From assembly GCA_031372705.1 (NCBI GenBank), contig JANMLV010000097.1:8316-72315 (forward strand): a stretch of 64,000 nucleotides of DNA. Reading direction: 5' to 3'. Position numbers and translations under genes: made by a program. Every line of letters begins with the position of its first letter. Within the stretch, counting starts at the first letter, position 1. Positions 1,628 through 29,584 of this stretch are shown here, piece after piece. The notes under the pieces were generated by a model. The model was not told where the DNA came from, ran no database searches, and was given only the letters and a program-made list of their open reading frames with translations. This DNA comes from Bacteroidota bacterium (GTDB lineage Bacteria; Bacteroidota; Bacteroidia; Chitinophagales; BACL12).

Positions 1628-3157
1628 TTACCTTGTTGCTCCCATTAATCTTTTAATAACCGGCGACAAAGCCAAAAGTGCCACACCCGCAACAACGGCA
1701 TATAGAGCAAGTTGCTCGTAACCATTGGTATAACCAACCAGTTTTTCATAAGCAGTTGCATTATTGTCGGCAGCACTCATGCCTGCACCAAGTAATCCTG
1801 CAGCATATTGCCCGTAAGCACTTGCTAAGAACCACATACCCATCATTAAACCCTGCATTGGTTGAGGCGATAATTTTGTCATTAGCGACAAGCCGATTGG
1901 CGACAAGCACAATTCACCAAATGTAATAATGAAGTAACCTAAAGTGAATATTTCTAAAGAAGTTAAGCCTGTTTGCGTGTCGGCGAATTTAATGGTATAA
2001 TAAAATACATAAAACGCTGCAGCAAGTAACAAAAATCCTAATCCGAATTTAGCCCCTGCATTTGGTTCCTTCTTTCTTTTCGCAAGCCAAATCCATACTA
2101 ATCCGAGTAGCGGAGCAAACACAATAACAAATAATGAGTTTGCCGAGTTATTTACCACATTTGGATTAATTGGAATGCCAAACAATGAATTCTTTAAATT
2201 ATTAAAAGCAAACAACGATAATGAACCACCGCTTTGCTCAAAAAATGCCCAGAAGAAAATAGAAAACACGATAAATATTAATGCCGCAGTTAATTTTTTT
2301 CTGGCAACATTATCATATTTGCGCATTTCGAATAATACATACAGTAAAGCAGCAGGTCCAACAATATACATAACCATGTCGGTATAGTTGCTATTCTTTA
2401 CCAAGATTAAAATAAGTGGAATCGTAATTAATGAACCGACATAAGTTGCAATTTCATACATACGCTTTTTTGAAGCCGGCATGGCAATACTTAATGGCGA
2501 TAAACCAATTGGCCCCATTGTTTTTTGTGTAAACCAAAAAGTAATAATACTGATGGTCATCACCACACCAACTAAGCCGAATGCAATACTCCAAGAAACA
2601 TTTAAACCAAACCATACCATTATGATACCACCCATGAACGCACCCAAATTTATACCTGCATAAAACAAGCTGAAACCCGCGTCGCGCCTTGAATCGCCAT
2701 CTTTATACAATTGCCCCACCATTGTCGAAATATTGGGTTTAAAGAACCCGGTTCCTATAATTGAAAAGCAAATACCGATATAGAAAAATTCTTCGGGCGA
2801 AATAGCGATAATAAATCCGCCGGCAATCATCATTAATGCCCCCCAGAAAAGCGACTTTCTGAAACCAAGAATTTTATCGGCGAATAAACCACCAATAAAA
2901 GTAAATGCATAAACAAAAGCTTGAATGGCACCGTATTGTAAATTGGCAGCTTTATCGGTTAATCCTAATTGGCTCGCCATAAAAACTGTTAACATACCGC
3001 GCATTCCATAAAAGCAGAAACGCTCCCACATTTCAACAGTAAATAAATACCATAATTGCTTAGGGTATTTTCCTGTAAATGACTGAATTTTTTCCAATTC
3101 AGGGTCCACCGGTGTTGGATGTTGTGCTTTTAATATTTCATCAATTGGTTCACTCAT
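1628..3157 (-). CDS. Proton-dependent oligopeptide transporter (POT/PTR2 family)
   Basis: MFS topology with the POT signature ExxERFxYYG region (TVEMWERFCFYGMRGML) and FKPNISTMVGQLY. Confidence 0.85.
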   Translation of the reverse strand: MSEPIDEILKAQHPTPVDPELEKIQSFTGKYPKQLWYLFTVEMWERFCFYGMRGMLTVFMASQLGLTDKAANLQYGAIQAFVYAFTFIGGLFADKILGFRKSLFWGALMMIAGGFIIAISPEEFFYIGICFSIIGTGFFKPNISTMVGQLYKDGDSRRDAGFSLFYAGINLGAFMGGIIMVWFGLNVSWSIAFGLVGVVMTISIITFWFTQKTMGPIGLSPLSIAMPASKKRMYEIATYVGSLITIPLILILVKNSNYTDMVMYIVGPAALLYVLFEMRKYDNVARKKLTAALIFIVFSIFFWAFFEQSGGSLSLFAFNNLKNSLFGIPINPNVVNNSANSLFVIVFAPLLGLVWIWLAKRKKEPNAGAKFGLGFLLLAAAFYVFYYTIKFADTQTGLTSLEIFTLGYFIITFGELCLSPIGLSLMTKLSPQPMQGLMMGMWFLASAYGQYAAGLLGAGMSAADNNATAYEKLVGYTNGYEQLALYAVVAGVALLALSPVIKRLMGATR

Positions 3158-3184: not shown

Positions 3185-4921
3185 TTAATTCACTCCTTTT
3201 TCCTTCATCACCCCATTGAGCCATTTTAACAATGCAAAAAGCATAGCTGCGGCAAGCATTACCAGAATGAAATTGGTAAAGAAAAATCCGCCTTTATTAT
3301 CAGTTGCTTCGAAATTACTTGACAAAATTCCGGCCAATTTATTTCCTACTGATGTAGAGAGGAAAAATCCACCCATCATTAAAGCTGTTAAACGCGGTGG
3401 CGATAATTTACTTACTAATGATAGACCCATTGGCGATAAACATAATTCACCAATAGTAATAACACCATAAGTGGCTATTAACCATAAGCTGCTTGCTTTG
3501 TCGTTGGCAATATCTACAGACTTAACTGCAAGTACCATTACCAATGCACTCAATGCTGTAATAACTAAGCCGATTGCAATTTTTGTTGGCGTGCTGGGTT
3601 CTCTGCCCTTTTTGCGCATGAATCCAAAAACACCTACAACAAGTGGTGTAAGTAATACAACCCAGAACGGATTTATTGATTGATATAATTCAGTAGAAAA
3701 CAACTTCAAATCGCCGCCGGGAGCAGGTCTGTTTTCTTCAGGTAAATTTTCGAAATACCGGTGTGAAGCACTGCGAATGGCTATCTCATCGGAAATAGCT
3801 TTTGCGCCATCTTCATTACCTGCTGCGGTTAGTGAATCACGCGTAGCTCCAAGTCCGCCCAAATAATTTTCGAAAGTGGCTTCATCATATTCAACTGAAG
3901 GATGATAATTAACAGTTTGCGCCATACCTATTCCTTCTGCCACATTGGCAACACCGTCGCTCATTTTGCGATGTGAATATTCTTCAGCCCAAACAGTAAG
4001 TGCATCACCATTTTGATGGAATACTGCCCAGAAAATTACAATACAAGCATACACACTTAACAAGGCTGCAATTGGTCGTCTATCTTCTTTATCGGAAGAA
4101 AACATTAAGTATAAGAAAAATGCAACAACCGGAACGCATCCAAAAATAAATGCATCGTTGGTATCTGTTCCTAATATATTACCATCAAGATTGTCGGGAC
4201 CTGTTACGCCATTTATAAAATAACCTAATAAACCGAATCCAAACATTGGCAACAAAACTGCTCCCAAAATTTTACCGGTTGATAGGTCGCCCGGTTTTAC
4301 AGGTTTTAATACATCAGCTTCTTTTATATGTTTTGTTCCTGCTGCAAATATTATCAAACCAATTATCATACCGATACCTGCGGCGGCAAATGCAAATCCC
4401 CAACCGTAGTTGATGCGCATAAATGCTGCTACGAAGTTGCAAAGAAATGCACCTACGTTAATACCCATGTAAAAAATGTTATAACCGGCGTCTTTGTTTG
4501 CTTTATATTTATCATCGTTATACAAATTACCAACCATGGTAGAAATATTCGGTTTGAAGAAACCATTACCTAAAATGATAAGTAGCAACGATATAAAAAA
4601 CGCGTTCTCGTTGTGAATCGAAAGTCCCAAATACCCTGCAGCCATTAATGAGCCGCCAATAAATATGGATCTTCGGTAACCGAGAATCCTATCAGCAAGC
4701 AAACCGCCAATAAATGGTGTTAAATAAACAAGGCCGATGTAGGTACCGTAGATATCAGACTTTTTTTGTCCAGTAAAGCCCATTCCCCCGTTTTCCCATG
4801 CATCAATCATGTACAACGAAAAAATACCGAGCATTAAATAATAACCGAAACGTTCCCACATTTCGGTGAAAAAGAGCACATATAGCCCTTTTGGATGTAA
4901 TGGTGAGGTTGGTTGACTCAT
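3185..4921 (-). CDS. Proton-dependent oligopeptide transporter (POT/PTR2 family), long-loop paralog
   Basis: FTEMWERFGYYLMLG and FKPNISTMVGNLY motifs. Carries an extra central soluble insert relative to the downstream paralog. Confidence 0.85.
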   Translation of the reverse strand: MSQPTSPLHPKGLYVLFFTEMWERFGYYLMLGIFSLYMIDAWENGGMGFTGQKKSDIYGTYIGLVYLTPFIGGLLADRILGYRRSIFIGGSLMAAGYLGLSIHNENAFFISLLLIILGNGFFKPNISTMVGNLYNDDKYKANKDAGYNIFYMGINVGAFLCNFVAAFMRINYGWGFAFAAAGIGMIIGLIIFAAGTKHIKEADVLKPVKPGDLSTGKILGAVLLPMFGFGLLGYFINGVTGPDNLDGNILGTDTNDAFIFGCVPVVAFFLYLMFSSDKEDRRPIAALLSVYACIVIFWAVFHQNGDALTVWAEEYSHRKMSDGVANVAEGIGMAQTVNYHPSVEYDEATFENYLGGLGATRDSLTAAGNEDGAKAISDEIAIRSASHRYFENLPEENRPAPGGDLKLFSTELYQSINPFWVVLLTPLVVGVFGFMRKKGREPSTPTKIAIGLVITALSALVMVLAVKSVDIANDKASSLWLIATYGVITIGELCLSPMGLSLVSKLSPPRLTALMMGGFFLSTSVGNKLAGILSSNFEATDNKGGFFFTNFILVMLAAAMLFALLKWLNGVMKEKGVN

Positions 4922-6595: not shown

Positions 6596-6973
6596 ATGGC
6601 TTCAAAATATGCGCCCGAAACATTTTTTGATCAGGTTTGGCAAGTGGTTAGGCTTATTCCGAAAGGAAGGGTGACTAATTATGGCAGTATTGCCAAATAC
6701 TTGGGAACAGGTTTGAGTTCAAGGATGGTTGGCTGGGCTATGAATGCCAGTCATCATGCAAAACCTAAAGTTCCGGCACACCGTGTAGTAAACAGGAATG
6801 GACTGCTTACAGGAAAAGCACATTTTAATCCACCTGAAAAAATGGTTGAGCTATTAGAAAAAGAAGGCGTTAAGATTAAAAACGACCAAGTTGTTGATTA
6901 CAAGTTGCTTTATTGGGATCCGGTTATTGAGCTTGGCGATCCGGATGTTCCGGGGCCGGGAGAGTTAGGGTGA
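6596..6973 (+). CDS. MGMT-family DNA-binding protein, alkyltransferase-like (ATL, no acceptor cysteine)
   Basis: The Ogt/Ada C-terminal domain pattern (GRVTNYGSIAK...VPAHRVVN) has PAHRV in place of the catalytic PCHRV. Confidence 0.75.
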   Translation: MASKYAPETFFDQVWQVVRLIPKGRVTNYGSIAKYLGTGLSSRMVGWAMNASHHAKPKVPAHRVVNRNGLLTGKAHFNPPEKMVELLEKEGVKIKNDQVVDYKLLYWDPVIELGDPDVPGPGELG

Positions 6974-6974
6974 A

Positions 6975-7735
6975 TTGTATTTTTTTCACGCGGAGAGAGG
7001 GAGAAATGCAAATGTGTTAATGTGCAAATGTACCAATGTGCAAATGTGCAAATGAAACAGCCGGCAATCCGATTCAAAAAATCATATGTTTTAATACATG
7101 CAATTTATGATCATTTTTTTCACGCGGAGAGAAGGTGAAATGCAAATTTGTTAATGTGCAAATGTGCAAATGAAACAGCCGGCAATCCGTTCAAAAACTC
7201 ATCTGTTATAATACGTGCAATTTATGGTCATTTTTTTCACGCGGAGAGAAGGAGAAATGCAAATGAATTAATGTGCAAATGTACCAATGTGCAAATGTGC
7301 AAATGAAACAGCCGGCAATCCGTTCAAAAAATCATCTGTTATAATACGTTCAATCTGTGTTTATTTATTCACGCGGAGAGAGGGAGAAATGCGAATGTGT
7401 TAATGTACAAATGTGCAAATGTGCAAATGAAACAGCCGGCAATCCGATTCAAAAAGTCATCTGTTATAATACGTTCAATCTGTGTCTATTTATTCACGCG
7501 GAGATAGGGAGAAATGCAGAACGTGGAGGGGTAAAAAGGTGGAGAAATGCAAATGTGTTAATGTGCAAATGTACCAATGTGCAAATGAAACAGCCGGCAA
7601 TCCGTTCAAAAACTCATCTGTTATAATACGTACAATTTATGGTCATTTTTTTCACGCGGAGAGAAGGAGAAATGTAGAGGTTTATGGTAGGGGGATGGGG
7701 AAAATGCGATATACGAAACTTGGCTGCCATTGAAT
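6975..7735. repeat. Tandem array of six 117-158 bp non-coding units with internal phased 8-mers
   Basis: The anchor TCACGCGGAGA recurs at 6986, 7120, 7237, 7369, 7494 and 7652. Every unit shares a GGAG-rich block, ATGTGCAA/ATGTACCA 8-mers, AATGAAACAGCCGGCAATCCG and TCATCTGTTATAATACG. Confidence 0.9.
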
Positions 7736-7783
7736 TATTATTAATAGGACAAAATTAATTTTACCTAAGTGAAAATTAATAAC

Positions 7784-7791
7784 TATATTTG
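7784..7791 (+). promoter_or_regulatory. -7 promoter box upstream of the lysA leader
   Basis: TATATTTG followed by CAC, an exact TAnnTTTGCAC match, identical to the rpsT box on the other strand. Confidence 0.55.
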
Positions 7792-7796
7792 CACCC

Positions 7797-7913
7797 ATGG
7801 AATTCAACTATAAACATAAATCTGCTAAGAAACGCATCCGGAATCGGTATGCTTAGCATATTTTATGTTTAAATAAAATATACAAGGCTTACCGAATTGG
7901 TAAGCCTTTTTTT
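7797..7913 (+). promoter_or_regulatory. Candidate lysA leader/attenuator or small RNA
   Basis: Contains a 19-codon mini-ORF (7797-7856, MEFNYKHKSAKKRIRNRYA). Two mutually exclusive stems are possible: 7812-7829 with 7852-7870, or 7858-7866 with 7873-7881. These are followed by an intrinsic terminator 45 nt before the lysA ATG. Confidence 0.4.
7884..7913 (+). terminator. Intrinsic terminator
   Basis: Perfect 10-bp stem AAGGCTTACC / GGTAAGCCTT with loop GAATT, followed by TTTTT. Confidence 0.75.
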
Positions 7914-7957
7914 ATTGTCATAATTTAAACTAAATAGCATCAAAAAACAAATCAAAT

Positions 7958-9187
7958 ATGAACAACATTAACCAGCTGCTGCGCGCTGCAGCCGAATTTG
8001 GAACACCATTGTATGTGTACAATGAAGATACAATGACAAATAAATATGAAACACTGAAAAGTGCATTTTCAAACATCCCTGTAAAAATAAAATACGCCTG
8101 TAAAGCACTAACTAATATGCAGGTTTTAAAGCACTTCAAGGCATTAGGTGCAGGACTCGATGCTGTTGCCATTGAAGAAGTTCAACTTGGATTAATAGCC
8201 GGTTTTTTACCGGAAGAAATACTTTTTACTCCCAACGGTGTAAGCATGCAAGAAATAAACGAAGCAGTGCAACTTGGCGTAGTTATTAATATCGACAACA
8301 TCAGCATTTTAGAACAATTTGGCAACCAATATCACAATACAGTTCCTTGTTGCATAAGACTAAACCCACATATTGAAGCCGGTGGGCATCATCATATTCA
8401 AACCGGACATATTGATAGTAAATTCGGAATTTCAATTTATCAACTTCGACATGTTTTACGGATTATTAAAGCACATGATATGAATGTTATCGGACTACAC
8501 ATGCATACCGGATCTGACATTTTAAACAGTAATGCATTTTTGCAAGGAGCCGATATTTTATTTGAAAGTGCATCGCAATTTACGGACATCCAATTCTTAG
8601 ATTTCGGCAGCGGCTTCAAAGTTCCGTATAAAGAAGATGATGTTGCCACCGATGTAGTGGAATTAGGTATTAAACTAACAGAAAAATATAATGATTACTT
8701 TGGTAACGCCGAAAATAAACCTGAAATATGGTTTGAGCCAGGAAAATTTTTAGTGAGCGAAGCAGGAACATTGTTGGTTCAAGTAAATGTAATCAAACCA
8801 ACTATGGCTACTGTTTTTGCCGGTGTAAACAGCGGACAGAATCACCTTATCAGGCCTATGTTTTACGATGCTTGGCACGATATCGTTAACATCAGTAATC
8901 CAAATGGCATTAAAAGAATTTATACTGTTGTAGGTTATATTTGTGAAACAGACACATTTGGCCGCGATCGTAAACTGAGCGAAACTAAAGAAGGTGATAT
9001 CCTCGCCATTAAAAATGCGGGTGCTTACGGTTATTCAATGAGTAACAATTATAATAGTAGACTCCGTCCTGCTGAAGTGCTCATCAACAATAACAATAAA
9101 ATGCAATTAATTCGCAAGAGAGAAACTTTAGAAGATTTATTGCGCAACCAAATAAATATTGAAGCAGAAATTAATATTTACGGCTAA
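7958..9187 (+). CDS. lysA: Diaminopimelate decarboxylase
   Basis: Fold-III PLP decarboxylase pattern (FGTPLYVY, YACKA, HMHTGS, GAYGYSMS) and a length typical of LysA. Confidence 0.9.
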   Translation: MNNINQLLRAAAEFGTPLYVYNEDTMTNKYETLKSAFSNIPVKIKYACKALTNMQVLKHFKALGAGLDAVAIEEVQLGLIAGFLPEEILFTPNGVSMQEINEAVQLGVVINIDNISILEQFGNQYHNTVPCCIRLNPHIEAGGHHHIQTGHIDSKFGISIYQLRHVLRIIKAHDMNVIGLHMHTGSDILNSNAFLQGADILFESASQFTDIQFLDFGSGFKVPYKEDDVATDVVELGIKLTEKYNDYFGNAENKPEIWFEPGKFLVSEAGTLLVQVNVIKPTMATVFAGVNSGQNHLIRPMFYDAWHDIVNISNPNGIKRIYTVVGYICETDTFGRDRKLSETKEGDILAIKNAGAYGYSMSNNYNSRLRPAEVLINNNNKMQLIRKRETLEDLLRNQINIEAEINIYG

Positions 9188-26602: not shown

Positions 26603-27199
26603 ATGACTACTATTTTCAGAATTTGTGTGTTGCTATTTATTGCTGCATTTTTTGTTGCATGCGAAACCGATAATACACCTAGGCCAAACGGTTATCCAAA
26701 AATTAATTACCCTGAATCAAAAAACAAAGTTAATTATAACGACGCCGATTGTCCTTATACTTTTATGTTACCCGATTACTATAGAATTGATAAAAATATT
26801 ACCTTCTTTAATCAAGTTCCTGACGACCCTTGTTGGATGAATTTAGTTTGTGAAGATTTAAATGCAACTATTTATTTCAGCTATAAGCAATTACAAGAAA
26901 ATATTACTGTGCAAAAAATGATTGAAGATGCCTACAAACTCACTTACAAGCACAGCAGCAGAGCCGATTTCATAGAACCGCAAGAAATTGAAAATCAATA
27001 CGGCGTTAAAGGTCTTATTTATTTTGTAGGTGGCGATGCAGCAAGTAATTTTCAATTTTTTGTTACCGATACTACTACAAATTTTGTTAGAGGAGCACTC
27101 TACTTTAACTCTCCACCAAATGCAGATTCACTAAAACCCGTAATTCAATTTATGGTAAATGATATTGAAGGCATGTTGGAGACTTGGCAGTGGCGGTAG
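26603..27199 (+). CDS. gldD: Gliding motility lipoprotein GldD-like
   Basis: Lipobox (FFVAC) followed by PRPNGYPKINYPE, which matches my recollection of the GldD N-terminus. Located next to ssb and mutY as in Flavobacterium. Confidence 0.6.
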   Translation: MTTIFRICVLLFIAAFFVACETDNTPRPNGYPKINYPESKNKVNYNDADCPYTFMLPDYYRIDKNITFFNQVPDDPCWMNLVCEDLNATIYFSYKQLQENITVQKMIEDAYKLTYKHSSRADFIEPQEIENQYGVKGLIYFVGGDAASNFQFFVTDTTTNFVRGALYFNSPPNADSLKPVIQFMVNDIEGMLETWQWR

Positions 27200-27434
27200 C
27201 TAATGTGCTGATGTGCAAATGTACCGATGTACCAATTAAACAGCCAATGAACAGCCGGAGCAGCCGAATTAATGTGCTGATGTGACGATGTGCTGATGTG
27301 CTGATTGAACAGCCGGAGCAGCCAATGTGTAAATGTACCAATGAAACAGCCGATTAATGTGCTGATGTGCTAATTAGCTAATTTGCTAATTGGCTAATTA
27401 GCTAATTAGCAAATCGTCACATTAGCACATTTGC
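27200..27434. repeat. Second locus of the 8-bp-phased repeat family
   Basis: Modules of TAATGTGC/TGATGTGC/AAATGTAC 8-mers end in (A)ACAGCCGG. These are followed by ten consecutive in-phase 8-mers (27355-27434), including five TAATTAGC-type units. Confidence 0.85.
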
Positions 27435-29584
27435 TCACGACCTTATATCTTTACTCCGTGGGAATACTCAACTTAAACACCCCGCTTACCTATTTAAAAG
27501 GAGTTGGCGAAGCAAGAGCCGAATTGCTTCGCAAAGAACTAAATCTGGATAATTGTCTGGACTTATTACAATTTTTTCCTTACCGTTATATCGACCGAAC
27601 CGATTTTAAAACTATTGATGAAGTAATTAAAATCGCACTGCAAACCGACGACCAAAAAGATGTTCAATTAAAAGGCAAATTAAAAAACATTCAAGTTGTT
27701 GGCACTAAAAGAGCTAAACGCTTAACTGCAACTTTAGAAGATGGAACAGGCAGTATCGACCTAGTTTGGTTTAACGGAATTAGCTGGTTGCAAAAAACAT
27801 TAAAACCGGATATACAATATCTCGTGTTTGGGAAGCCTTATTTCTTTAATAGCAACTTAAATATTACCCACCCTGAAATTGAAGATGCTGCTACCAGCGA
27901 GTTTTTAGTAAGCGGAAAAATACAGCCCATGTATCCCGGCACCGAAAAACTAAAGGCCCGAGGAATTAACAGCAAAGCCGTTGGCAGATATACACATTAT
28001 TTAATAGATCAGCTTGATGATAAAGAATTGTATGAAATACTACCGACTTCCATTTTGGAAAAATACAAACTTATTTCCAGGTTCGAAGCATATAAACAAA
28101 TTCATTATCCCGATTCTGATTTACATTTACAACATGCAATTAGAAGATTAAAATTTGAAGAATTATTCATCGATCAAATTAAATTACTGCGCGTTAAACA
28201 ATATCGCAATAGCACAAGTATTGGGTTTATATTAAAAAATATCGACGATATTTTTACACCGTTTTATAACCACCATTTACCGTTTGAATTAACCAATGCA
28301 CAAAAACGTGTAGTAAAAGAAATTCGCAAAGATGTTTTAAGTGGCAGGCAAATGAATAGATTGCTGCAAGGAGATGTTGGTAGCGGGAAAACTGTTGTTG
28401 CTTTACTTACCATGTTAATGGGAATTGACAATAATTTTCAAAGTTGCTTAATGGCACCTACCGAAATATTGGCGCAACAACATTATACAGGTATAAAAGA
28501 ATTACTTGAGCCCCTAAATCTGCGTGTTGAATTATTAACCGGTAGTGTAAAAGGGGAAAAGCGCAAAGTAATTTTTGAAGATTTAGATAACGGCAAAATT
28601 CATATTTTAATTGGAACCCATGCATTAATTGAAGACACGGTCAAATTTAATAATCTGGGCTGTGTAGTTATTGATGAGCAGCACCGATTTGGAGTGGAGC
28701 AACGCGCTAAACTGTGGACTAAAAATAATATCGCACCACATATTTTAGTAATGACGGCAACACCAATTCCTCGCACACTTGCCATGACTTACTATGGCGA
28801 TTTAGATGTGAGTGTTATTGATGAATTACCTCCGGGCCGAAAACAAATTAAAACTGTGCATCGCAAAGAAAGTGAGCGATTACATGTATTCGGTTTTCTG
28901 AAAGAACAAATTCAAGAAGGCCGACAGGTTTTTGTTATTTATCCGTTAATTGAAGAAAGTGAGAAATTAGATTTGAATAATTTAATGGATGGAGTTAAAG
29001 CATTTGAACGTTCGTTTCCGCGTCCACAATATCACATTAGTATTATGCATGGTAAAATGCGGCCTGCCGATAAGGATTTTGAAATGCAGCGATTTCTGAA
29101 AAACGAAACACAAATTATGGTTTCAACAACCGTAATTGAAGTTGGCGTAAATGTTCCAAATGCAACAGTAATGATTATTGAAAATGCTGAGCGATTTGGA
29201 TTAGCGCAACTGCATCAATTGCGCGGTCGGGTTGGACGTGGGGCACATCAATCTTTTTGTATTTTAATGACCGGCGATAAATTAAATAACGATGCGCGCA
29301 CACGCATTCAAACCATGATTCAAACTAACGATGGTTTTAAAATATCGGAAGTAGATATGCAATTGCGCGGTCCGGGAGAAATTGAAGGCACGCGACAAAG
29401 TGGAGCTCCACAATTTAAAATTGCCAATATTCAAACCGACGAGCATATTATGCGAGCAGCCCGTACCTCGGCAGAAAACCTACTTAACGATGACGCACAA
29501 TTTGAAAAAGGCGAAAATCAGCCCCTAAAAAAATATCTTTCCGAACAAAAATGGAAAATAAAGCAGTGGGGCAAAGTTTCTTGA
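27431..29584 (+). CDS. recG: ATP-dependent DNA helicase RecG
   Basis: Wedge/OB domain and helicase motifs GDVGSGKT, DEQHRFG and QLRGRVGRG. The TTG start lies inside the repeat; GTG 27458 is an alternative. Confidence 0.9.
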   Translation: MLTTLYLYSVGILNLNTPLTYLKGVGEARAELLRKELNLDNCLDLLQFFPYRYIDRTDFKTIDEVIKIALQTDDQKDVQLKGKLKNIQVVGTKRAKRLTATLEDGTGSIDLVWFNGISWLQKTLKPDIQYLVFGKPYFFNSNLNITHPEIEDAATSEFLVSGKIQPMYPGTEKLKARGINSKAVGRYTHYLIDQLDDKELYEILPTSILEKYKLISRFEAYKQIHYPDSDLHLQHAIRRLKFEELFIDQIKLLRVKQYRNSTSIGFILKNIDDIFTPFYNHHLPFELTNAQKRVVKEIRKDVLSGRQMNRLLQGDVGSGKTVVALLTMLMGIDNNFQSCLMAPTEILAQQHYTGIKELLEPLNLRVELLTGSVKGEKRKVIFEDLDNGKIHILIGTHALIEDTVKFNNLGCVVIDEQHRFGVEQRAKLWTKNNIAPHILVMTATPIPRTLAMTYYGDLDVSVIDELPPGRKQIKTVHRKESERLHVFGFLKEQIQEGRQVFVIYPLIEESEKLDLNNLMDGVKAFERSFPRPQYHISIMHGKMRPADKDFEMQRFLKNETQIMVSTTVIEVGVNVPNATVMIIENAERFGLAQLHQLRGRVGRGAHQSFCILMTGDKLNNDARTRIQTMIQTNDGFKISEVDMQLRGPGEIEGTRQSGAPQFKIANIQTDEHIMRAARTSAENLLNDDAQFEKGENQPLKKYLSEQKWKIKQWGKVS

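Follow-up and report, generated by a model that had tools for sequence, protein, structure and literature searches.

What kind of element is the tandem repeat array that lies between a gene for an alkyltransferase-like (ATL) protein and lysA in a Bacteroidota bacterium of the order Chitinophagales (BACL12)? The array spans positions 6979-7675 of a 64,000-nucleotide stretch of DNA, hereafter the window (NCBI GenBank assembly GCA_031372705.1, contig JANMLV010000097.1, positions 8,316 to 72,315 of the forward strand). We propose, with a probability of roughly 0.55, that it is a lineage-specific, non-coding cluster resembling a variable-number tandem repeat (VNTR), built from a dispersed family of mosaic intergenic repeats of Chitinophagales. 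Fast-evolving repeat DNA is the most likely explanation for this locus, in preference to a conserved regulatory element.

The array consists of five full units (117-158 bp) and a 24-nt stub of a sixth. By direct reading and by motif scan, the anchor TCACGCGGAGA has exact matches at 6986, 7120, 7237, 7369, 7494 and 7652, and unit alignment gives anchor-to-anchor spacings of 134, 117, 132, 125 and 158. No further site was found at 0-1 mismatch in the 64-kb window. These positions and spacings reproduce exactly those of an earlier note made from the sequence alone. That note counted six copies: six anchors are indeed present, but only five units are complete, the sixth being a 24-nt head (7652-7675) that is followed by a G-rich segment. 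It also placed the start of the array 2 nt after the ATL stop codon, which has to be corrected. In a relative with an ATL of 88% identity, comparison at the 3' end of the gene shows native sequence continuing through TGAATTGTATT. Thus, the array starts at approximately 6979, 6 nt past the ATL stop.

All units follow a plan of four modules: a purine-rich head (TCACGCGGAGA...GGAGAAATG), three to five phased 8-mers, the block AATGAAACAGCCGG, and a tail of ~55 nt. The 8-mers are ATGTGCAA or ATGTACCA, in runs of 25, 33 or 41 nt. Their register is strict, with a constant ATG and variation at positions 5, 7 and 8 alone; the phased pattern has 25 matches in the window versus 0.67 expected. Tandem Repeats Finder likewise reports periods of 117 bp and 158 bp at the array, with a nested period of 8 bp. 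Along the array, the features are as follows.

6979..7119, + strand: unit 1 by alignment, with a T-run, head TCACGCGGAGAGAGGGAGAAATGC, five 8-mers, AATGAAACAGCCGGCAATCCG, and a type-A tail with a degenerate TGTTTTAAT
7120..7236, + strand: unit 2, 117 bp, with three 8-mers and a type-A tail 99% identical to that of unit 5
7237..7368, + strand: unit 3, 132 bp, with five 8-mers and a type-B tail ending in ...TTCAATCTGTGTTTATTTAT
7369..7493, + strand: unit 4, 125 bp, with four 8-mers and a type-B tail 96% identical to that of unit 3
7494..7651, + strand: unit 5, 158 bp, with a head carrying a 33-nt insert, four 8-mers and a type-A tail
7652..7675, + strand: unit 6, truncated to a 24-nt head (TCACGCGGAGAGAAGGAGAAATGT), with which the independent contig L049 agrees
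7676..7735, + strand: G-rich end segment (GGTAGGGGGATGGGGAAAA...) after the stub

Unit lengths vary by whole 8-mers, by a 1-nt indel (CCGATTC/CCGTTC), and by the 33-nt insert of unit 5, which is purine-rich, looks like a duplication, and repeats GGAGAAATGC. Gain or loss of whole 8-mers and an insert in the fifth copy had been described before, and both are seen in our dissection of the units. The same is true of TGTTATAAT, present at 7204, 7337, 7462 and 7619 (four of five units) and degenerate in the first copy. The number of GGA motifs, previously put at about 15, is 15 on the + strand, approximately twice the window density. The unit 1 tail shares ~90% identity with the type-A tails of units 2 and 5 and 84% with the type-B tails of units 3 and 4, so that tail types run A-A-B-B-A along the array. 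This pattern, with its pairs at 96-99% identity, fits recent unequal crossing-over or gene conversion. By eye, the end segment at 7676-7735 recalls the G-rich GATGGGGGTTGGGGTGGG that closes two mosaics of related genomes (L003 and L019).

The array is real. In a Logan assembly of SRR20217172, the ATL contig stops at window position 7029 and the lysA contig (L049) restarts at 7645, with identical sequence. Since an independent assembly gives the same junction sequence, both junctions are confirmed; this confirmation does not extend to the interior, the copy number or the continuity from ATL to lysA. It is very unlikely that the locus is an assembly artefact, in which one array behind ATL and another before lysA, both from a single family, were misjoined or the copy number is wrong. 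Such an error would fit two observations: ATL and lysA have different neighbours in every relative examined, and at either end of the array, the short-read contigs of this organism break off within it. However, the independent assembly reproduces both junctions exactly, and the units are resolvable from one another (tails at 84-99% identity, differing 8-mer counts). The genes next to ATL and lysA are not constant from one relative to another either, and even with a wrong join, tandem units of this kind would exist at both gene ends. Searches of Logan and JGI metagenomes found no second strain that carries the array.

The array belongs to a dispersed family of mosaic repeats. Three of its four modules (head, 8-mers and AATGAAACAGCCGG) recur independently in other intergenic DNA of its own and related genomes, and the array is therefore no solitary case. 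Modules are found at two sites in the 64 kb and at many loci in related metagenome-assembled genomes (MAGs); no further copy of the whole unit or of its tail was found. The module types of the family include the head, the 8-mer and AACAGCCGG. The tail (TTCAAAAAnTCATCTGTTATAATACG..., ~55 nt) is known from the array alone, with no second occurrence in the sequences compared. The other site in the window, located with Tandem Repeats Finder and pattern scans, is as follows.

27199..27437, + strand: second mosaic of the same family, between a GldD-like and a recG-like gene

This second mosaic begins 0-4 nt past the stop of the GldD-like gene and holds ATGTGCTG/ATGTACCA 8-mers, AACAGCCG blocks and GCTAATTA repeats. 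Its distal part (27355-27437, ~80 nt) is a long palindrome built from 8-mers, with a predicted hairpin of -38.7 kcal/mol (z -7.5). The independent contig L050 ends within it.

When one genome per species was scanned with ATGTRCMAATGAAACAGCCG, 19 loci were found, mainly in the MAGs Chitinophagales AMR_MDS_5528 and Bacteroidetes Rand_18-Q3-R56-63_BAT3C.178, together with Terrimonas ferruginea (mosaics at L012). At these loci, the intergenic DNA is packed with 8-mers (ATGTACCG, ATGTGCTG, ATGTACCA), AATGAAACAGCCGG and Shine-Dalgarno (SD)-like GGAGGTGGAATGG blocks, and it also holds small palindromes (TCCGCCnnnGGCGGA, GTCAACCCACGTGTTGAC) and GCTAATTA runs. The array head (TTTCACGCGGAGA plus purine tract) matches a module in related genomes at a score reached by none of 500 shuffles. 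There, it is part of a conserved element of ~110 nt within 8-mer mosaics, and it is reversed relative to the 8-mers. In JGI metagenomes, the exact head pattern has no match and a looser pattern has 14 loci, approximately half of which are true family members. Viral contigs gave no match for either pattern, and phage genomes gave none. Literature searches, by 8-mer string and on repeat families of Chitinophagaceae, returned nothing relevant.

The family is strongly polar. Among non-redundant loci, the 8-mer blocks point the same way as the upstream gene at ~12 independent loci versus 2 exceptions. The blocks start 0-60 nt after a stop codon or directly after an intrinsic terminator, and several upstream stop codons fall within the first TRATG of the block. 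GC skew, used as a proxy for replication direction, merely tracks gene orientation. The 8-mers also differ by genome: endings are mostly AA/CA in this window and TG/CG in the MAGs, with GTAA/GAAA forms in Terrimonas.

The array locus is a synteny breakpoint and a repeat hot spot, and the array itself appears, from the sequences compared, to be derived and lineage-specific. The earlier note had suggested comparing relatives for conservation of the unit and for synteny with ATL; neither is found. Behind ATL, the array is absent in the closest relatives (88% ATL identity), where the gene is followed after ~50 nt by convergent genes. In these same relatives (L028-L031), an 8-mer block stands at the stop of a neighboring gene of 183 aa, and a solo head lies just behind trmB. 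Upstream of lysA, the array is absent in more distant relatives with LysA identities of 84% and 77%; only a leader of 190-380 nt is present, preceded by htpG or a LytTR regulator. A relative with 93% LysA identity has a different tandem array, with a 63-nt unit, ~400 nt upstream of its lysA leader (L021 1-1140; starts of L022-L026), and its contigs from six metagenomes all start inside that array. Thus, the array sits where gene order departs from every relative examined. Change can also be seen within the family, since orthologous mosaics (L003 versus L019) have the same flanks and differ in module number and order.

The array is non-coding. Open reading frames (ORFs) as long as 89 aa run across the units, and no frame stays open consistently from unit to unit, as had been noted before. 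Comparison with Rfam, which the earlier note had suggested, matched no family: at gathering thresholds, the whole window has no match. At E<=10 on 6800-8000, the sole match on the array is a sub-threshold snoR03 (7010-7155, 21.3 bits against a gathering threshold of 80, E 7.2), and the remaining matches fall at the terminator of the lysA leader. Unit folds have no excess stability over shuffled sequences on either strand (z -0.25 to +1.65). Folds of the ~110-nt head module of relatives are no better than shuffled, and its distinct copies are too few for covariation.

The units contain no full sigma-70-type promoter and no terminator; TGTTATAAT alone is present, in four of five units. The Bacteroidota TAnnTTTG box is missing from the + strand of the array. 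Minus-strand Bacteroidota promoters were considered and rejected: the TACATTTG boxes arise from ATGTACCA 8-mers in three of five units, 18 nt from TTTG, and are not conserved. As had been claimed before, no predicted terminator stands between ATL and the array, the first terminator-like site after the ATL stop (6973) being that of the lysA leader at 7884. Passive read-through from ATL is therefore possible.

A role at the RNA level is highly improbable. The array would then be an ATL 3' untranslated region (UTR) acting as a sponge for proteins or ribosomes by means of its GGA and SD-like motifs, or a set of tandem small RNA genes with TGTTATAAT promoters, as in NsiR1. The lack of a predicted terminator up to 7884 would be consistent with such a role, as would the raised GGA density, and AAGGAG/GGAGG tracts are unusual in Bacteroidota, whose ribosomes rely little on SD pairing. 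We know of no CsrA-type GGA binders that are typical of Bacteroidota. For the latter, TGTTATAAT is a perfect extended -10 of the E. coli type, but housekeeping promoters of Bacteroidota have TAnnTTTG and not TATAAT. Further points against an RNA-level role are the lack of a stable or conserved fold, of an Rfam match and of terminators inside the units. The absence of the array at ATL and lysA of relatives argues against a conserved 3'-UTR regulatory RNA. Moreover, the mosaics of relatives frequently lie past an intrinsic terminator, and membership of a transcript is thus not a property of the family.

The array falls outside several known repeat classes. It is not a clustered regularly interspaced short palindromic repeat (CRISPR) locus, since what recurs, at 84-99% identity, is the entire 117-158-bp unit, and unique spacers are lacking. 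Imperfect palindromes of 20-40 nt, as in REP (repetitive extragenic palindromic) sequences, do not occur in the units. The inverted repeats that occur are 10-12 nt long and A/T-rich, and the units therefore have neither a REP-like palindrome nor a terminus like that of a MITE (miniature inverted-repeat transposable element). Neither the units nor the array ends have inverted termini. The flanks of the array resemble neither each other nor the unit, which excludes an origin by duplication of flanking DNA. The earlier judgment that the array is not CRISPR, REP or bacterial interspersed mosaic element (BIME), MITE or insertion sequence end is thus borne out, with REP taken in its classical sense, by the lack of spacers and inverted termini and by fold z scores near 0. 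We regard the array as a variant of dispersed intergenic mosaic or minisatellite repeats, outside REP, MITE, CRISPR and any Rfam family.

It is unlikely that the array is a REP/BIME-type cluster, in which the modules would be non-autonomous elements spread on single-stranded DNA by a Y1 transposase, either a REP-associated tyrosine transposase (RAYT) or one resembling IS200/IS605. This alternative concerns the mode of spread and is compatible with a VNTR-like cluster. It draws on the 93% LysA relative, which carries its 63-nt array at the same site; the unit of that array (...GTGTTAYAATAATGTCACCTCGCTGAGGTTGGTGTGGAG...) includes a small hairpin, CACCTCGCTGAGGT. In one sample (L021), inverted copies of this unit stand on both sides of a Y1_Tnp gene (Pfam E 9e-25). 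The palindrome TCCGCCnnnGGCGGA of the MAG mosaics, often preceded by CGTC, is a further point in favor, as are the long REPIN-like hairpin of the second mosaic and the orientation bias of the family, which would fit strand-specific transposition. Bacteroidetes have CGTC-tagged REPs, and REP clusters can be tandemly reiterated with flanking DNA (PMC3733652).

Nevertheless, the array units lack a palindrome, and no TCCGCC-type hairpin occurs in the 64-kb window. A tblastn search of the window and of the related loci examined finds no gene for a Y1 transposase, and no RAYT was seen flanked by 8-mer modules: the RAYT-like gene of L021 is flanked by another unit, not the array unit. Homology between the two units was considered and is not claimed, because only TGTTATAATA is common to them, at a score reached by 15 of 500 shuffles. 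The L021 transposase is a protein of 156 aa with DHMH and YIKNQEEHH motifs and belongs to subclass 1.2 of PMC6006769, members of which are generally without typical flanking structures (PMC6006769). Its RAYT homologues are all <=64% identical and give no information on flanks. In comparison with BIME/REP and REPIN-RAYT systems of E. coli and Pseudomonas (PMC3733652, PMC6006769), the array shares the character of lineage-specific intergenic mosaics of short modules, sometimes tandemly reiterated with flanking DNA. In contrast to them, it is without the defining imperfect palindrome, without a GTAG or CGTC tag, and without a linked RAYT.

The 14-nt palindrome TCCGCCnnnGGCGGA is also found inside single 8-mers (ATGTG-TCCGCCGCGGCGGA-TGCTG), as if a tiny hairpin had been inserted (L003, L008, L010, L013, L018, L035 and others). 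Its Terrimonas analogue is TCCCGCTTTTAGCGGGA. Neither palindrome is present in the 64-kb window.

Strictly phased direct repeats of 7-8 bp are also a feature of iteron and centromere arrays bound by ribbon-helix-helix (RHH) proteins. Examples are the tandem 8-bp metboxes recognized by MetJ, the boxes spaced 8 bp apart in parH to which ParG binds, and the 7-bp heptads of the omega repressor. The 8-mer runs could be binding sites of this sort for a protein that polymerizes in an 8-bp register, making the array a dense loading site; we consider this quite unlikely. The strict 8-bp phase, with its fixed ATG and its variation at positions 5, 7 and 8, would be expected of such sites. Nearly identical 8-mers (ATGTATAA/ATGTGCAA/ATGTGTAA, 7 copies) lie directly upstream of an operon of a ParA-like AAA ATPase and a DUF5388 protein in megaplasmids of Ligilactobacillus salivarius, the usual place of a type Ib partition centromere or operator, and nine copies occur in an intergenic region of the Bacillus plasmid pBTBD59S1. 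Judged by their setting, the plasmid 8-mers are likely partition or operator iterons, but their likeness to the Chitinophagales 8-mers may be coincidental. A chance match is possible, given that a pair of 8-mer arrays shares a unit at ~1e-3 to 1e-2 and that 7.3 Gb were searched. Furthermore, no par, rep or RHH gene adjoins the array, whose neighbors are ATL and lysA, and no candidate binder was identified. The 8-mer runs are scattered at ordinary chromosomal gene ends, and their content differs between orthologous loci.

The L. salivarius 8-mers lie at 1200-1265 of L052 (plasmid NZ_CP114507.1). Those of pBTBD59S1 (L051 1490-1560) are beside an SD and a small unannotated ORF.

The short tandemly repeated repetitive (STRR) heptamers of heterocystous cyanobacteria, reportedly described by Mazel et al. 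in 1990, resemble the 8-mers in habit. They too are tandem units of 7-8 nt, dispersed in intergenic DNA, lineage-specific and of unknown function. Unlike the array 8-mers, they have a 7-nt period and are not reported within larger, tandemly amplified composite units. The BOX elements of Streptococcus pneumoniae (boxA-(boxB)n-boxC; PMC3184786) are likewise intergenic, with a variable internal tandem module between conserved ends, and are transcribed together with neighboring genes (PMC3184786). They differ from the array in having inverted-repeat ends, a stable fold and MITE-like mobility, in being single dispersed elements, and in the length of boxB (45 bp versus 8 bp).

Among known systems, the array behaves most like the mycobacterial interspersed repetitive unit (MIRU) VNTRs. 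As Supply et al. 1997 are summarized in PMC3184786 and PMC12548453, MIRU units measure 40-100+ bp and are non-coding, head-to-tail and variable in copy number at many intergenic loci; they are gene-oriented, border on the ends of genes and are missing at orthologous positions in relatives. Of these traits, the array and its family share the following: the units are non-coding, head-to-tail, intergenic and gene-oriented, they begin close to a gene end and are missing in relatives, and 8-mer mosaics are co-oriented at ~12/14 loci. MIRUs carry short ORFs overlapping stop and start codons of adjoining genes (translational coupling), are dispersed as whole units and contain no 8-bp sub-repeat. The array, unlike MIRU, has no consistent ORF, with no frame conserved across units; a promoter, leader and terminator separate it from lysA; and its sub-modules are found elsewhere on their own.

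The VNTR-like cluster that we favor could have arisen in a few steps. Repeat modules would have been deposited just behind the ATL stop, possibly in the rearrangement by which ATL and lysA became neighbors. The composite unit would then have been amplified head-to-tail by unequal recombination or gene conversion, while the 8-mer runs would grow and shrink by slipped-strand mispairing. The absence of a terminator between ATL and the array makes it probable that the array is carried passively on ATL read-through transcripts. Judging by its sequence, it probably has no sequence-specific cellular role.

Several points weigh against this proposal. Both the inside of the array and the link from ATL to lysA depend on a single assembly, and a lack of function is not provable from sequence. 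The strong polarity of the family hints at selection or directed insertion and not at neutral junk, and the fact that each genome has its own 8-mer variants suggests that the repeats are actively spread or homogenized.

These features could instead mean that the 8-bp-phased mosaics are genome-wide polar cis-elements, which we consider rather unlikely. They may be protein-loading arrays, with a dedicated DNA- or RNA-binding protein that reads the 8-nt register. Alternatively, they may be the traces of a non-autonomous mobile element, as yet undescribed, whose insertions have one set orientation and fall on TRAT(G)-type sites at stops or terminators, and which regenerates its target and so gives rise to head-to-tail arrays. 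Either version would explain the adjacency to stop codons, the co-orientation with genes and the genome-specific 8-mers, which neutral slippage does not.

If the family is as we propose, the dispersed, modular intergenic repeats of Chitinophagales, with their 8-bp phase, form a class that has apparently not been described. No earlier record of such repeats was found in Rfam, in literature searched by repeat sequence, or in phage or viral contigs. Mosaic repeats of this kind break short-read assemblies, and several of the metagenomic contigs examined end or begin within such arrays. They also mark synteny breakpoints and are a source of rearrangements. Since the mosaics vary between orthologous loci, strain typing of uncultured Bacteroidota could use them as VNTRs. 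The strict 3'-end polarity, and the SD-like tracts in a largely SD-avoiding phylum, could point to a new insertion mechanism or binding protein.

The neighbors of the array, all outside it, are as follows.

6596..6973, + strand: ATL-type gene with an MGMT DNA-binding domain (PF01035, E 3e-22) and PAHRV for the PCHRV active site
7760..7925, + strand: lysA leader region, the right-hand neighbor of the array
7958..9187, + strand: lysA, diaminopimelate decarboxylase

ATL homologues range from 110 to 132 aa. The ATL here and its closest relatives have a variable C-terminal extension of 10-20 aa (DPxxPxP...), which is lacking in the majority, of 110-115 aa, of the homologues compared (P0121-P0153). 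Its last ~6 residues are GPGELG here versus KKRK/KKK in the 88% relatives. These differing ends suggest that the 3' end of ATL is itself unstable beside the repeat.

The lysA leader resembles, in its sequence, a Lys-codon leader-peptide attenuator. It has a promoter-like -7 box of the Bacteroidota type (TATATTTG) at 7783-7790, a Lys-rich mini-ORF (MEFNYKHKSAKKRIRNRYA) at 7798-7857 with overlapping alternative inverted repeats, and an intrinsic terminator at 7884-7908, 50 nt ahead of the lysA ATG. Leader peptide and terminator are kept in relatives, the peptide reading MEFNFKHKSAKKRIRNRYA in L021-L026 and VQFNAKHKSSKKCYRKR in L027. Rfam assigns the leader to no family, and a weak Phe_leader match covers the terminator only.

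Elsewhere in the window, and unrelated to the array, the adjacent minus-strand genes at 1628-3157 and 3185-4921 are tandem paralogues that have stretches of 77-82% identity in register. These stretches pair 1866-1929 with 3399-3462 and 2991-3034 with 4821-4864.

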